Shown: piece after piece, positions 10,987 through 16,470 of the stretch
How positions within the stretch are numbered: position 1 is the first letter of the stretch
Layout of the letters: each line of letters opens with the position of its first letter
From: Candidatus Poribacteria bacterium
GTDB lineage: Bacteria; Poribacteria; WGA-4E; UBA9662
Assembly: GCA_036339735.1 (NCBI GenBank)
Contig: JAYZAL010000052.1
Location: 1 to 44,140, forward strand
Reading direction: 5' to 3'
DNA: 44,140 nt
Notes under the pieces: model-generated
Seen by the model: only the letters and a program-made list of their open reading frames with translations
Told to the model about the DNA's origin: nothing
Databases searched by the model: none
Program-made: the position numbers and the translations under genes

Positions 10987-13404
10987 TTGTCTCAGTCCGT
11001 CCGGCTTTTATGTCCCTTGATTATTCTGTTTGTGTTTGCTATTGGGTTAACTTGGATGGGTTGCGGTGAAGAAGACGATTCAATCGACCTACCACCTCAA
11101 CCCATCAATGTCCAAGCCACTGTCGAGCCTAATCATGTTTCTCTAGAATGGGAACTCTCGGAATCTAACAATAACCGACTGAGATTCTACGTTTATCGAC
11201 GGATAGCATCTGAAAACGAATCCAGACAAATTGCCAAGACTGAGCAACCTTCCTACCAAGATTTTTCAGTTATTGCTGATACGAGCTATTTTTATTACAT
11301 ATCGACTACTAGAAGTAGAAAAGACCAAAAGTTTGAAAGCCGACTATCTGAACCAATTCGCATAGATTTTTTTCAGCCTAAATTGATAATCGAACCTGCT
11401 CAGATCGATCTTGTTTCTTCAGAAACTACTGCTAAATTTCGGTTACAGAACCAAGGATTAGCAATTCTGAATTGGTCTATTGAAAAAACTCCTGATTGGC
11501 TATCGATTGATATCAGTGGAGGTTTCATTAATCCGAGTCAATCCGAAACTGTTATAGCAACTATTGTTTCCGATCTAAAACCAGACCTTTATCAGTCTAA
11601 TCTCCAGATAGATGTTACCGGATCGGGTCCAGTGATTCTACCAGTATTTCTCGAAGTTTCTGCTAAACCAAAAATTTGGCTTAGTAGCGAAGAAATCCAA
11701 TTCGGATACAATGACGATAGCAAGAATTTAGTCCTAAAAAACAGCGGAACGGGCATCTTAGATTGGACAATCGTTAGCCCTGAAAATTGGCTGCTTGTTG
11801 AGCCCAGCAGAGGACAGATCAAGGCCGAAACCAAGATAGTAAAGTTAAGCGTTGATCGATCGGCCCTACCAACCGGAATGACAAGCACTCAACTAACACT
11901 TTCAACTGGTAATGGCCAGGTGTTGCCTATTTCGGTCAATATTGGCACATCTCGACCCATTCTAGCTCTTTCCGATAATAAAGTAGACTTCGAATCTGAT
12001 AGCCAAAGAAAAACGATCATTCTCCGTAATGAGGGACTAGTGGATTTATCCTGGAGATTAACCCCACCCAGACCACGTTGGCTTCAAACTATTCCTTCTA
12101 GAGGAGTGTTACCGCCGAAATCATCTACTGAGGTTGGATTGATTTTCGATCGAAGTTGGGTGCCCGCGGGTCAACACAATTTCGAAGTTGAATTTTCCTC
12201 CTCACCATCGACGGATAATTTTCCCAGTCAGTCCTTACTGATTTTTGCTCAGAAAAAGGGGCAGATTTTTGGCTTAGTTAAGGATAGTAGAACTGGTAGA
12301 TCGTTGGCTAATGCTGAAATATATTTACCTCCCTACCGAGAAAAGAGCAAGTCTGACGGTAAATTTGTGTTGCCTTTTGACAATGAAGGACAACATCAAA
12401 TTAATATTACAGCCGATCGGTATATAGGTCGCATAGAAACTATTAAGACCATATTTGGCGAAGCTAAAGTGGTTATCGATCTGAGTCCAGTTCCCAAGAT
12501 CGATCAGCAAATCATGGCTGGCAAACATATATCTCATCCGGTTCGTGTTGCTTTCAGTGCTAATTCGATTTACGTTACCAATCAACGGCATCATTCACAA
12601 TTAACAGTAGTTGAGTCGAATGGAGTCGCGAGTAGCCTTCATCTGAACGAACCAGAAGTCTTACAGAGGGATGAGAATCCTGTTGGTATTGCCATCACTA
12701 AAGATAAAATCTGCTTAGCATTGTCGGATATCGATAAGATTTCAATCGTTTCAGCTGATGATGGTAGAGAAATTCACCGTTTCAAAGTGGGGGATTATCC
12801 AGTCGATTGCGTAGTTTCAGATGATGGGCGTTGGTTATATGTGAGTCTGCAGAGGGAAAACCGGATAGCAGTAGTTGATTTAGAAATACCGGCCCGAATT
12901 CACCGTATCGTAGTTGGTGCTCAACCAAACCGTTTACTGATTAGAGACGGTCTGCTTTATGTGTGTAATTATGGGGATGCGACGGTTTCAGTGATTGACC
13001 TCGGTAGACGTCTAGAAGTTTTGCGAATTCGAGTTGGGCAACTACCAACCAACTTGAGTATAGCTCAAAATAGTCATTACCTTTATGTAGTCAATTCTTT
13101 GTCTGATGATCTGTCAATCATTGATCTCAATACTCACCGGGAGGTTGCACGACCACAAGTTTCAGTTTCACCAGTCGCTGTTTCATCGATCCGCGAACCG
13201 AACGGTAGAGAACTTGTCTACGTTGGAAACCAGGACGGTAGCTTACAGATTTACGAGATTTTTGTCCAACACGACAAATTGGAACTCATTCCACGCCTAC
13301 GTTTAAATACAAAACTTCGGATGCAGGATATGAAGTACAATTCAAATCAGGAGAAGTTGGTTGTCCTTGGTAGGAATCAAATCACTATTTTCGGCTATGA
13401 TTGA
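10987..13404 (+). CDS. Multidomain surface lipoprotein: FN3-like + ~3 BACON/Ig-like repeats + carboxypeptidase-regulatory-like + YVTN beta-propeller
   Basis: Lipobox-like WMGC; repeated N-x-G-xx-(I/D)L-x-W...WL...G (BACON-like) units; GQIFGLVKDSRTG; YVTN and VGxxP repeats at the C-terminus. Confidence 0.75.
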   Translation: MSQSVRLLCPLIILFVFAIGLTWMGCGEEDDSIDLPPQPINVQATVEPNHVSLEWELSESNNNRLRFYVYRRIASENESRQIAKTEQPSYQDFSVIADTSYFYYISTTRSRKDQKFESRLSEPIRIDFFQPKLIIEPAQIDLVSSETTAKFRLQNQGLAILNWSIEKTPDWLSIDISGGFINPSQSETVIATIVSDLKPDLYQSNLQIDVTGSGPVILPVFLEVSAKPKIWLSSEEIQFGYNDDSKNLVLKNSGTGILDWTIVSPENWLLVEPSRGQIKAETKIVKLSVDRSALPTGMTSTQLTLSTGNGQVLPISVNIGTSRPILALSDNKVDFESDSQRKTIILRNEGLVDLSWRLTPPRPRWLQTIPSRGVLPPKSSTEVGLIFDRSWVPAGQHNFEVEFSSSPSTDNFPSQSLLIFAQKKGQIFGLVKDSRTGRSLANAEIYLPPYREKSKSDGKFVLPFDNEGQHQINITADRYIGRIETIKTIFGEAKVVIDLSPVPKIDQQIMAGKHISHPVRVAFSANSIYVTNQRHHSQLTVVESNGVASSLHLNEPEVLQRDENPVGIAITKDKICLALSDIDKISIVSADDGREIHRFKVGDYPVDCVVSDDGRWLYVSLQRENRIAVVDLEIPARIHRIVVGAQPNRLLIRDGLLYVCNYGDATVSVIDLGRRLEVLRIRVGQLPTNLSIAQNSHYLYVVNSLSDDLSIIDLNTHREVARPQVSVSPVAVSSIREPNGRELVYVGNQDGSLQIYEIFVQHDKLELIPRLRLNTKLRMQDMKYNSNQEKLVVLGRNQITIFGYD

Positions 13405-13711
13405 TGATAATTACCCTCAGGATAAAGATCCTGAAGTTCAGACGTTATGGATCAATGGAGAACTGGATTTACATACTTTTCATCCAAGTGAGATTAAGTC
13501 ATTGATTCCTGAATACATGAATGCTTGTCTAGAGCGTGACATTCGACGGATACGAATCGTCCACGGGAAAGGAACCGGAGTACTACGACAAACTGTACAC
13601 GCAATTTTGGATAAGCAGCCTCAGGTTTTGACATTTGGCTTAGCCGATCAATCAGAGGGTGGTTGGGGAGCAACCATTGTCCATTTACATTCGTCCAACA
13701 GTTCTGACTGA
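13397..13711 (+). CDS. Stand-alone Smr/MutS2 C-terminal domain protein
   Basis: LDLH, IRIVHGKGTGVLR and GGWGAT motifs. The ATG at 13397 overlaps the upstream stop (ATGATTGA). Confidence 0.9.
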   Translation: MIDDNYPQDKDPEVQTLWINGELDLHTFHPSEIKSLIPEYMNACLERDIRRIRIVHGKGTGVLRQTVHAILDKQPQVLTFGLADQSEGGWGATIVHLHSSNSSD

Positions 13712-13827: not shown

Positions 13828-14835
13828 ATGTATAAAGCAGGTATTATTGGGTGTGGAGGTCGAGGGAGAGCACATGCTCAGGGCTATCAATTATCACCGG
13901 ATGTAGAAATTGTGGCTTGCTCTGATCCAGTTGAAGATAGTCGTAGTGGTTTTGTGAAACAATTTGGAATAGAGCGATCCTATGATGATTACCAACAAAT
14001 GTTGGACGAAGAAGATCTTGATTTTGTTAGTGTGTGTACTTGGATTCGTCTACATACGGATATGATTGTAAATGCGGCCAATAGTGGAATCAAAGCGATT
14101 CACGCCGAAAAACCTATTGCGCCTACTTGGGGAGAAGCCAGAAAATTATATCAAGCTTGCCTAGACAATGATGTTTTAATTACTTTCTGTCATCAGCGTC
14201 GTTTTGGTGCACCTTTTGTTAAGGCAAAGCAATTAGCTCATGATGGAACTATTGGTGAACTAGTTCGAGTAGAGGGCAATTGTCCCAACATGCTGGATTG
14301 GGGAACACATTGGTTTGATATGTTCTTTTTCTATAATAATGACCAACCTGCGGAGTGGGTTATCGGTCAGGTTGATGGTAGTAGTACCAAAGAAGTATTT
14401 GGCGTATCAGTTGCGGCCGGCGGAGTTTCCTGGATTCGATGGAAGAATGGGTTAGAAGGACTTTTGGCTACTGGAAGTACTGGTCTACAAGGGGCCGCCA
14501 ACCGATTAGTTGGTACACACGGAAAAATTGAGGTCCATGCTGATGGAGTCCCAATTCGAGTTATGTCTAGTGAGTCAAATGATTGGCAGTTTCCGAATTT
14601 GAGTGGGGTTGTTCCTACCACAGGAAATGACACGTCTTTGTCAGTATTAAACCTCATAGAGGCTGTCAAAACCGGTCAAGAACCCGAGCTCAGCGGGCGT
14701 AAGGCTATGCAAGCAACAGAATTGATCTTTGCAACTTACCAATCTAGTCGTATTCGCCGTAAAGTTATACTACCACTCAACATCGATGATTCCCCTCTTC
14801 TGTCAATGATTGAAACTGGTGAAATAGCTGTATAA
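13828..14835 (+). CDS. Gfo/Idh/MocA family oxidoreductase
   Basis: GIIGCGG Rossmann motif, EKP, DWGTHWFD. Confidence 0.92.
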   Translation: MYKAGIIGCGGRGRAHAQGYQLSPDVEIVACSDPVEDSRSGFVKQFGIERSYDDYQQMLDEEDLDFVSVCTWIRLHTDMIVNAANSGIKAIHAEKPIAPTWGEARKLYQACLDNDVLITFCHQRRFGAPFVKAKQLAHDGTIGELVRVEGNCPNMLDWGTHWFDMFFFYNNDQPAEWVIGQVDGSSTKEVFGVSVAAGGVSWIRWKNGLEGLLATGSTGLQGAANRLVGTHGKIEVHADGVPIRVMSSESNDWQFPNLSGVVPTTGNDTSLSVLNLIEAVKTGQEPELSGRKAMQATELIFATYQSSRIRRKVILPLNIDDSPLLSMIETGEIAV

Positions 14836-14840
14836 AACAC

Positions 14841-14871
14841 GGGGTTTTAAAACAGATGAATCCCCAAAAAA
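14841..14871. terminator. Possible terminator hairpin between the Gfo gene and the convergent RNA element
   Basis: GGGG...CCCC imperfect inverted repeat 14841-14865 immediately after the stop codon, with an adjacent A/T run. Confidence 0.35.
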
Positions 14872-14902
14872 TCAAACCACGGAGTAGCTAATTCTAATAA
14901 AA

Positions 14903-15222
14903 GGTGGTTAAACATAAACCGAGTCCTGCCGATTGACCACGACATAGAAAGCAACTTTCACTCTTTATTATTGCTCATCAACACTAGTCGTCACCATCCC
15001 CAAACAAACAAAATTCGAATCCGAATAGGGAACGAGTCTACTAGGATACACAAATCAGAAACACTGGCCAGTTTCAAGATCTTACGTTACGATCGAGAAG
15101 CCAGCCAGCTGAAATTCATACGGAGCGCCCAGTTGGAGCCTGGGGCTTTATGTTGCGTACAACCTAATAGGAGGTTAGTACGACGCATGCTCAACCCCAT
15201 AATATAATATCGAGGTAGGCAC
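14903..15222 (-). ncRNA. Putative large structured non-coding RNA (unassigned family)
   Basis: Own sigma70 promoter; 5' GGGGUUGAGCAU pairs with 3' AUGUUUAACCACC; five internal hairpins rich in G-U pairs that form only on the minus strand; no credible ORF. Confidence 0.6.
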
Positions 15223-15228
15223 GCTGCG

Positions 15229-15257
15229 ATTGTACCATCTAAATATATTTACATCAA
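15229..15257 (-). promoter_or_regulatory. Near-consensus sigma70 promoter with extended -10, pointing into the putative ncRNA
   Basis: Minus strand TTGATG (15257-15252), 17-nt spacer ending in TGG, TACAAT (15234-15229). Confidence 0.65.
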
Positions 15258-15356
15258 GATGCAGTTTTTTATCTTCTTGATTTTTAGTTTTTCGAAAAAT
15301 CAGAAGTTCATTTTTTCCATAAATAGAACATCTGGTCAATATGGACTAACAAAAGA

Positions 15357-15671
15357 TTAATTGTTGGAGAAATTTGGGTTATCAAGTTTCCATAATTTTC
15401 GAATTACTAGAGAATCTAATGATATATGATCTATATTTTCATCACTTAAATAATTCGTGGGCGATTGATCATCCTGTCTTGTTCGACTAGTAGCAAACTC
15501 ATCACAAATACGAGACAAATTATTAATAAAACAGTTCCACCGATCTTTTTTGTGCCGCGACTGCCCTTCAGACAAGACCAAGGATAATTCATACAAATTG
15601 GTTTTTGAATACCGTTGATTTTGGGTCAAACAATTATTTTTGGGTTGATTTGTTTCTTGTTCTAGTTCCAT
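15357..15671 (-). CDS. Hypothetical protein
   Basis: 104-aa ATG ORF in an AT-rich gap with no overlap; no recognisable motif. Confidence 0.4.
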   Translation of the reverse strand: MELEQETNQPKNNCLTQNQRYSKTNLYELSLVLSEGQSRHKKDRWNCFINNLSRICDEFATSRTRQDDQSPTNYLSDENIDHISLDSLVIRKLWKLDNPNFSNN

Positions 15672-16470
15672 AAGATTTATTGCTTATAAATTCGTATATA
15701 CCAGTTTAATTTAATTAACGGATACTAAGTGGAAAAATAGGTCAAGGTTAAAATTTAAGAGAATAACAAACATTATAACTGTATTATCATCTTTTCAGTT
15801 TACTTTCTGATCTGAGTGAATCAGTTTTAACTGAATCTTTGGGGATAGTTGTTGCTACTAAATTCTAAGTTGATACTCGCTATTTTCGTTGACAGTTAGG
15901 TTTTCAGTAGGTGGATTGGTTTCTTCCAATCGGTTATTAACGTCCGTTCTATAGGACTGATTAGATCGGTTAATGTTCGGGTTTTTATAAATGATGGCTG
16001 GCAAAAAACATCACTCTATTCTTTAAAGAAAATTATATTTTATTTCAGAGAAACGAGCATCGATTAAAAACAGAAAAGCTGATATGATTCCCAACCCAAG
16101 AAACAAATTAGTACATGTTTTACCGTGTTGACTATCAAAGAAGGCTAAAACCACTGACAGTGTTTATTAACAATTGCCAGACCGCCCCCCTCGACTTTTC
16201 TAAACCGAAAAAGGTTCCTGGTTATAACATCTGGGTGTAAATTCTTTAATACATTGTATTCCAAGAATAAAAAACAAAGAATATGAAATGAGGGGCCATT
16301 TTTACGGTGTTTTGTCTTGCTATACAAATCGACTAATCCGCAAAAATCTTAGTAGAAATGTAAAAAATTCTATGATTCGTAAAACTGGTAGATTATGAAC
16401 AAAATTATCTAATAATCCAGTAGCTCGATGGATGTTTTACATGCTAGTTGACGTACAAATTTAACCTAAC

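Follow-up and report, generated by a model that had tools for sequence, protein, structure and literature searches.

A genus-restricted structured RNA gene with its own promoter in marine Candidatus Poribacteria

This work concerns a non-coding RNA gene on the minus strand of contig JAYZAL010000052.1 of the Candidatus Poribacteria assembly GCA_036339735.1 (hereafter G000), the whole 44,140-nt stretch of which was analysed and is called the window. The feature is a real, strongly transcribed and abundant RNA gene of ~356 nt (14867-15222) with its own promoter. It is, as far as found, genus-restricted and is not an RNase P RNA, a 6S RNA or a transfer-messenger RNA (tmRNA), and its function can only be inferred. 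A first-pass annotation, made from the letters of the window, had proposed at this place a stand-alone large RNA folded into a closed 296-nt domain of five hairpins. The start site that it predicted and most of its helices hold; the closed five-hairpin architecture does not.

First, the transcript itself is found in marine RNA data, which were available as assembled contigs, not as raw reads, from runs picked for holding the stretch. Words of 14850-15300 were detected in 24 RNA runs that belong to 15 studies and are, with few exceptions, marine metatranscriptomes, each run having less than half of the stretch's words. Seven RNA contigs, from four runs of four studies, were compared with 14300-15900. 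In run X2, one 413-nt contig aligns through its letters 48-393 with 14867-15222, and the match stops exactly at 15222, near which the start had been predicted from the promoter sequence. Past 15222 this contig carries 20 further adaptor-like letters that are absent from the window, the reverse complement of which resembles the last letters of a template-switch adaptor of the SMART type with GGG after them, a putative identification. An adaptor of this type is joined at the 5′-end of the RNA. Since adaptor-like letters follow 15222, the transcription start is fixed at G15222, and the minus strand with it; this nucleotide lies 6 nt past the -10 box TACAAT. The seven contigs all leave 15223-15806 uncovered, and uncovered parts, such as the small open reading frame (ORF) upstream, are not counted as evidence of silence.

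Second, the promoter stands where it had been described, on the minus strand at 15229-15257, with a -35 box TTGATG (15257-15252), a 17-nt spacer, a TG at 15237-15236 and a -10 box TACAAT (15234-15229). In the promoter scan the boxes match the consensus at 9 of 12 positions with the TG present, and an A/T-rich tract lies upstream. The motif by itself is no proof, because the scan finds 8 promoter-like sites where 7.8 are expected in shuffles. Homologues of the RNA amount to six sequences in three lineages, namely this genome, two congener genomes (G001, the most distant, and G002) and three metagenome contigs (L010, L011 and L012). The promoter boxes are conserved in five of the six, those with upstream sequence, contig L012 being without the -35 box, and in G001 the promoter reads TTGCTA-17-TATAAT.

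At the other end, the transcript runs ~36 nt beyond the 3′ limit given in the first-pass annotation, through a terminator-like hairpin, AGAAUUAGCUAC-UCC-GUGG-U-UUGAUUUU followed by a U-run (14865-14895, minus strand; hairpin 14895-14868), and the X2 match ends within the U-run at 14867. This hairpin is present in the minimum free energy (MFE) structures of G000 and L010 and has 86% of its cells paired in the six sequences; the site at 14895-14865 is not listed by a consensus terminator scan. The neighbouring gene on the 3′ side is convergent, and no same-strand gene lies downstream. Past 14867, the X2 contig has a further 47 A-rich letters with no counterpart in the window, and poly(A)- or oligo-dT-primed libraries account for 6 of the 24 runs with the stretch; the bacterial RNA may have received a non-templated A-rich tail, or the extension may stem from internal priming or from a chimeric contig.

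The RNA occurs in a narrow set of organisms. BLAST finds it in both other species of the genus, and an exact 21-base pattern gives three further copies on metagenome contigs, all from close relatives, while the exact-pattern scan of genome contigs returns the two congeners only. A covariance model built on the 5′ 143 nt of the RNA (R1) matches none of the 148 other genomes of the order, none of the four same-family genomes at E<=1 and none of 150 other genomes in the phylum sample. Two patterns searched in viral contigs gave no match, and comparison of the RNA with its own genome, for similarity and for complementarity, yielded nothing past 15-nt chance words. So far, these sequence searches indicate that the RNA is restricted to one genus of marine Candidatus Poribacteria.

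Constraint on the RNA is very unevenly distributed along its length. G000 was compared with G001, taking as neutral yardstick the third-codon positions of the adjacent oxidoreductase gene, which are 56.8% identical between the two. Against this, 91 of 100 columns of the 5′ core of the RNA (alignment columns 30-131) are identical, as compared with 13 of 28 columns in the leader and 78 of 188 (41%) in the 3′ 190 nt. Therefore, it is the 5′ part that forms the functional unit, whereas the 3′ half drifts about neutrally. Selection acts almost only on the 5′ ~100-140 nt, which comprise the hub GGGGUUGAGCAUGCG, H1, H2, the segment that joins H2 to H3, and the H3 base. The conservation of the core is not that of a coding sequence, because the core contains indels of 1 and 2 nt as well as an insertion of 2 nt, which break the only sizeable ORF, one of 37 codons (ATG at 15200) that is frameshifted or truncated in the other lineages. 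A 22-codon ORF in the 3′ part, preceded by AGGA, was also rejected as a gene, for G001 lacks its start codon and the stop falls past the observed 3′-end. No ORF is common to all six homologues, in agreement with the earlier statement that no credible ORF is present.

The helices proposed by the first-pass annotation do exist in this genome, all 75 pairs checked being formed, 13 of them as G-U, and the RNA folds moderately better than its shuffled sequences. The minus strand reaches -97.7 kcal/mol (z -2.66, matched by 1 of 100 shuffles), the plus strand -77.7 kcal/mol (z -1.89, matched by 3 of 100), and the most distant homologue has a z of -4.05, with 0 of 100 shuffles as good. Energy folding covered five homologues, G002 (a sequence with N) being left out and its clade mates L010 and L011 included.

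In these folds the 5′-end is taken up by a terminal hairpin that starts from +1, P0 (15187-15222, minus strand), one strand of which is the leader at 15222-15199, itself of low conservation, and the other the conserved segment GGGGUUGAGCAU at 15198-15187. P0 is in the MFE structure of all five homologues folded, with 97-100% of its cells paired in the six sequences and duplex energies of -13.3 to -22.0 kcal/mol, and it competes with the helix P1, by which the same segment (15198-15187) would pair with AUGUUUAACCACC (14903-14915, minus strand) near the 3′-end through 12 pairs in G000. P1 is the helix that had been proposed to close the domain. Its 10+2 pairs and the UUUU after them are present, 90.3% of its cells are paired and one pair shows a double change in the six-sequence alignment, but it is the disfavoured fold, as structures with P0 beat the P1-forced ones by 4.7-25 kcal/mol. 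The hub GAGCAUGCG in fact has three alternative partners, the leader (P0), the joining segment J2/3 (which would enclose H1 and H2 in a three-way junction) and the 3′ tail (P1).

Downstream of the hub, H1 (15156-15182, minus strand; CGUAC/GUACG and AACCU/AGGUU) has all 10 of its pairs invariant in the six sequences, and so does H2 (15124-15147; AGC-CCCAG/CUGGG-C-GCU with the 7-nt loop GCUCCAA) with all 8. Since both are 100% paired and never vary, their pairing is uninformative on covariation. The conserved segment J2/3, CCGUAUGAAUUUCA (15110-15123), leads into the long hairpin H3 (15063-15109; GCUGGCUGG/CUGGCCAGU with an apical GAUC/GAUC), the sole helix with clear covariation. Its core of 9 pairs has 100% of cells paired, with one pair changed on both sides and three on one side, as compared with 80% of cells paired at its base. 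The remainder up to the 3′ strand of P1 (14916-15062) is a variable region of about neutral sequence evolution that includes H4 and H5, where the inner parts of H4 are not conserved (69.6% of cells paired in H4b and 66.7% in H4c) and H5 has 93.9% of its cells paired. The five-hairpin picture is thus correct only in part: constraint falls on the 5′ part, made of the 5′ hairpin, H1, H2 and H3, and the six homologues do not preserve the H3 base or the inner H4 helices.

The RNA could not be assigned to a known family. With Rfam 15 at the gathering score the whole window gives no match, and at E<=10 an 801-nt stretch, a 366-nt stretch and the G001 homologue give chance-level matches only (E 1.8-7.7; miRNA, snoRNA, CRISPR-DR, and Brucella and Listeria sRNAs), with no match to the RNase P models in any of the three. 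The 6S models match neither at the gathering score nor at E<=10, the riboswitch models in Rfam do not match, and an ARAGORN scan of the window for tRNA and tmRNA returns nothing, no tRNA-like domain or tag frame being present.

The genome, the assembly of which is 92% complete, carries several of the housekeeping RNAs elsewhere. A full-length rnpB lies on another contig (G000:C66:81611-81970, 294.1 bits, E 5.8e-97, model positions 1-367), a tmRNA on C29 (172.8 bits) and a signal recognition particle (SRP) RNA on C11 (72.6 bits). This disposes of the earlier suggestion that the feature is a highly divergent rnpB. Bacterial RNase P RNA (RF00010) is alike in size, and two short stretches recall its CR-I and CR-V in the right order, but this resemblance is at chance level. 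Aligned locally with the genome's own rnpB, the whole RNA scores 17, a value that 383 of 500 shuffles equal or exceed, and for the 3′ motif 183 of 500 shuffles do so; additionally, the CR-I motif GAGGAAAGUC and a full P4 are absent from the RNA. Part of another SRP RNA is matched at G000:C64:1-512 (42.9 bits, truncated by the start of the contig), and weak matches to the tmRNA model at the end of that contig are probably tRNAs.

The suggestion of a 6S-like RNA found no support. The RNA resembles 6S RNA (RF00013) and Ms1 in being abundant, stand-alone and a few hundred nt long, with a strong promoter and with ends able to pair; unlike them it is multi-branched and not a rod with a central bubble, is conserved in its 5′ part only, occurs in one genus and has no model match. 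The MFE folds of the five homologues are all multi-branched with the local hairpins H1-H3, and one long helix between the halves, as the 6S rod needs, is incompatible with a 5′ half that is 91% identical beside a 3′ half that is 41% identical. RF00013 was detected neither in this genome nor in 40 other Poribacteria genomes, several of the 41 being complete. This silence says little, because the model detects 6S in only 5 of 14 control genomes, and the 6S RNA of the phylum, if there is one, seems to be unrecognised by the current model. Also comparable are the IMES RNAs, orphan RNAs that are said, from the 2009 work of Weinberg and colleagues, to be known mainly from marine metatranscriptomes and metagenomes. 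Like these, our RNA comes from uncultured marine bacteria, is abundant in ocean metatranscriptomes and has no assigned function; unlike them, its host lineage, promoter and 5′-end are known, and no marine family of Rfam 15 matches it. To judge from these model searches the RNA belongs to no described family and represents a new one of an ordinary kind, the stand-alone bacterial structured RNA. The transcript end at 15222, the lack of an Rfam match and the conservation in congeners together support the first-pass annotation in two of its suggestions, that of a stand-alone large RNA and that of an undescribed lineage-specific motif.

As to function, the motif CUCC recurs three times without variation in the 5′ core: as ACCUCCU in the loop of H1, as GCUCCAA in that of H2, and as GCUCCG at the 5′ edge of J2/3 where H2 ends. 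Loop bases beside the motifs vary, in H2 the last base only, and the motifs do not. From the genome-wide frequency of CTCC (0.00225 per position), ~0.23 copies would be expected in the ~100-nt core, by an arithmetic that is rough and post hoc. The genome uses Shine-Dalgarno (SD) sequences: upstream of 2645 crudely defined gene starts, GGAG and AGGA are most frequent at -15 to -9. The 16S rRNA of a congener ends in CACCUCCUUU, the anti-SD tail of which is identical to the H1 loop ACCUCCU; beyond these 7 nt the congener's 16S locus and the RNA have no further likeness or complementarity. In Firmicutes, C-rich loops of RsaE and RNAIII pair with the ribosome-binding sites of mRNAs and block translation initiation.

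Based on the invariant CUCC motifs, the SD use of the genome and the 16S tail of the congener, we favour, tentatively and at well below an even chance, the reading that the RNA acts in trans through its 5′ domain, its CUCC loops pairing with mRNA ribosome-binding sites by analogy with these Firmicutes RNAs. The 5′ domain would display the three anti-SD-like motifs, which could pair with GGAG-type SD regions of mRNAs and thereby block translation initiation; the 5′ hairpin and the putative terminator would stabilise the RNA, which may account for its abundance, and the variable 3′ half would serve as a spacer under little constraint. RsaE/RoxS and RNAIII are likewise stand-alone RNAs with their own promoter and terminator (the terminator of our RNA being a candidate), hairpin loops that repeat an SD-complementary C-rich motif, and a strongly conserved functional part. 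They differ in having UCCC in place of CUCC, in belonging to another phylum and in lacking any sequence or model similarity to the present RNA, which is three times as long as RsaE, has a drifting 190-nt 3′ half and yielded no target here.

Several results weigh against this favoured reading. A duplex search of the CUCC segments against 3599 start regions, crude in that accessibility and conservation were ignored, gave best and mean energies no better than those of five shuffles per segment, and it named no specific mRNA as a candidate target. Only the CUCC of H2 is fully unpaired in the structure model. The H1 and H2 stems (36 nt) have zero changes where neutral sites differ by ~43%, an invariance that exceeds what loop pairing needs and points to protein or tertiary contacts, and a drifting 3′ half of 190 nt is unusual for a base-pairing sRNA. 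Covariation is also thin: with six sequences from three lineages, the covariation of the structure drawn by the first-pass annotation is reached by 7-9 of 500 shuffles and that of an alternative structure by 31-33 of 500, counts which are controls and not probabilities. In addition, both transcript ends rest on the single assembled contig of run X2.

The invariance of the stems is better suited to an RNA read as a shape, whose 5′ domain would be bound by protein or hold tertiary contacts, in which CUCC takes part, be it as the RNA of a ribonucleoprotein (RNP), as a protein decoy or as a catalytic or ligand-binding core. We regard this as only slightly less probable than the favoured reading. 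None of the 18 pairs in H1 and H2 varies, and the linkers hardly do, at a third-codon identity of 57%; predicted mRNA targets show no excess; the RNA is abundant; and its ~356 nt fall within the size range of the sponge RNAs CsrB and CrcZ. On the other side, three repeated motifs are far below the number in known sponges, inspection by eye showed no conserved pseudoknot or known tertiary motif, and the sole conserved neighbour, a 104-aa ORF, is not co-distributed with the RNA. That the ~140-nt 5′ domain is moreover a new tertiary-folded module, an RNP core, ligand sensor or ribozyme of recent origin in pelagic Poribacteria, is a clearly improbable extension. If it were true, the module would be expressed strongly enough for the RNA of a rare organism to assemble in many ocean metatranscriptomes, poly(A)-selected ones included.

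The three mutually exclusive partners of the hub, each kept in all lineages, could also suggest an orphan sensor akin to a riboswitch, in which a ligand or signal would select among the P0, J2/3 and P1 folds and alter the stability or activity of the RNA. Aptamers typically are junctions with invariant nucleotides, and such a junction could form here. We nevertheless think it unlikely, as the RNA has no same-strand gene downstream, its neighbour being convergent, no riboswitch model matches, and P0 is the clear winner in 5 of 5 folds; further, the hub is near-palindromic (GCAUGC), so alternative partners arise easily by chance.

The contest between P0 and P1 is also reminiscent of hok mRNA, which has a metastable 5′ hairpin and a 5′-3′ fold-back, and so the RNA might be an mRNA for a small peptide, for instance a type I toxin of the hok kind, with these elements controlling translation. 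Like hok-type mRNAs, it has a 5′-terminal hairpin that competes with a long-range 5′-3′ helix and is a highly structured, apparently stable RNA of 350-400 nt; its distribution is narrow, and it contains the short ORFs of 37 and 22 codons described above. Neither ORF is conserved, however, neither peptide is hydrophobic or membrane-like, and a third-position change pattern is not visible, and we consider a peptide-coding function very unlikely. A divergent housekeeping RNA, either a regulator of RNA polymerase like 6S or Ms1 or a second RNase P-like RNA, is still less probable and largely refuted: abundance, strong promoter, a phylum in all 41 examined genomes of which RF00013 goes undetected and the two motifs echoing RNase P speak for it, but the insensitivity of RF00013 takes most meaning from its silence, the canonical rnpB is present, no RNase P or 6S model matches at E<=10 and the echo is at chance level, the rod would need co-evolving halves, and an RNA found in one genus only cannot be the 6S RNA of the phylum. 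Hardly credible at all is a non-functional feature, either a transcribed intergenic remnant or a read-through or 3′-UTR signal from the convergent oxidoreductase gene, in which any structure would be due to chance. In its favour, an RNA contig of X3 (14724-15150) links the end of that gene with the RNA region, the contigs carry no strand information and the promoter scan is no richer than shuffles. Against it, the core is 91% identical as compared with 57% at neutral sites, the promoter boxes are conserved, the transcript ends exactly at the predicted +1 with its strand fixed by the adaptor-like letters, and the fold of the minus strand is more stable by 20 kcal/mol than that of the plus strand.

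Poribacteria are uncultured, and this RNA is the first lineage-specific RNA gene with a mapped start for their free-living marine lineage; a literature search, as far as titles and the opening lines of abstracts go, brought up no paper on Poribacteria non-coding RNAs or on their 6S RNA. The RNA is plentiful enough to be traced through ocean metatranscriptomes that already exist, and so it might be used to mark the activity of the group. It also provides a clean case of an ultra-conserved 5′ module joined to a freely drifting 3′ half, which makes it tractable in vitro for a new RNA-protein or RNA-mRNA interaction. Its reach is limited, since only one genus and six sequences are known and the function is inferred.

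The gene order around the RNA is a PhyH-like gene, the small ORF and the RNA, followed by the convergent GFO/IDH/MocA oxidoreductase gene and an Smr gene. It is identical in all five loci with enough flank, the sixth contig being too short. The small ORF, of 104 aa (15357-15671, minus strand), adjoins the RNA upstream in the five loci with enough upstream flank and has no Pfam, NCBIfam or Atlas lead. Its relatives (~70-130 aa), with the conserved core NLYELSL..SEGQSR...DRWNCFINNLSRICD, turn up in 144 of the order's 151 genomes, mostly with one match per genome, and this genus has additional paralogues. The ORF and the RNA are not co-distributed, because the RNA occurs in 3 of these 151 genomes. 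Beside 17 orthologues of the small ORF, R1 found nothing significant (best E 0.019, with an unconvincing alignment), and the 420-nt gap after the small ORF in genome G004 has no likeness to the RNA. Between the small ORF and the promoter of the RNA lies a hairpin, CAGAUGUUC...GAACUUCUG followed by AUUUUU (15293-15334, minus strand), read from the sequence as a candidate terminator that would separate the two; it is also the source of a spurious mir-7386 match in Rfam.

Farther upstream, the ~800 nt before the small ORF (15672-16470) contain no ORF of at least 61 aa on either strand, and an RNA contig of X3 begins there, at 15807. On the other side of the RNA, a protein of 805 aa is encoded on the plus strand (10987-13404); it combines BACON_2 and several Ig-like domains with a beta-propeller-like C-terminal part, and the Smr-domain ORF (13361-13711) comes next and overlaps the end of its gene.

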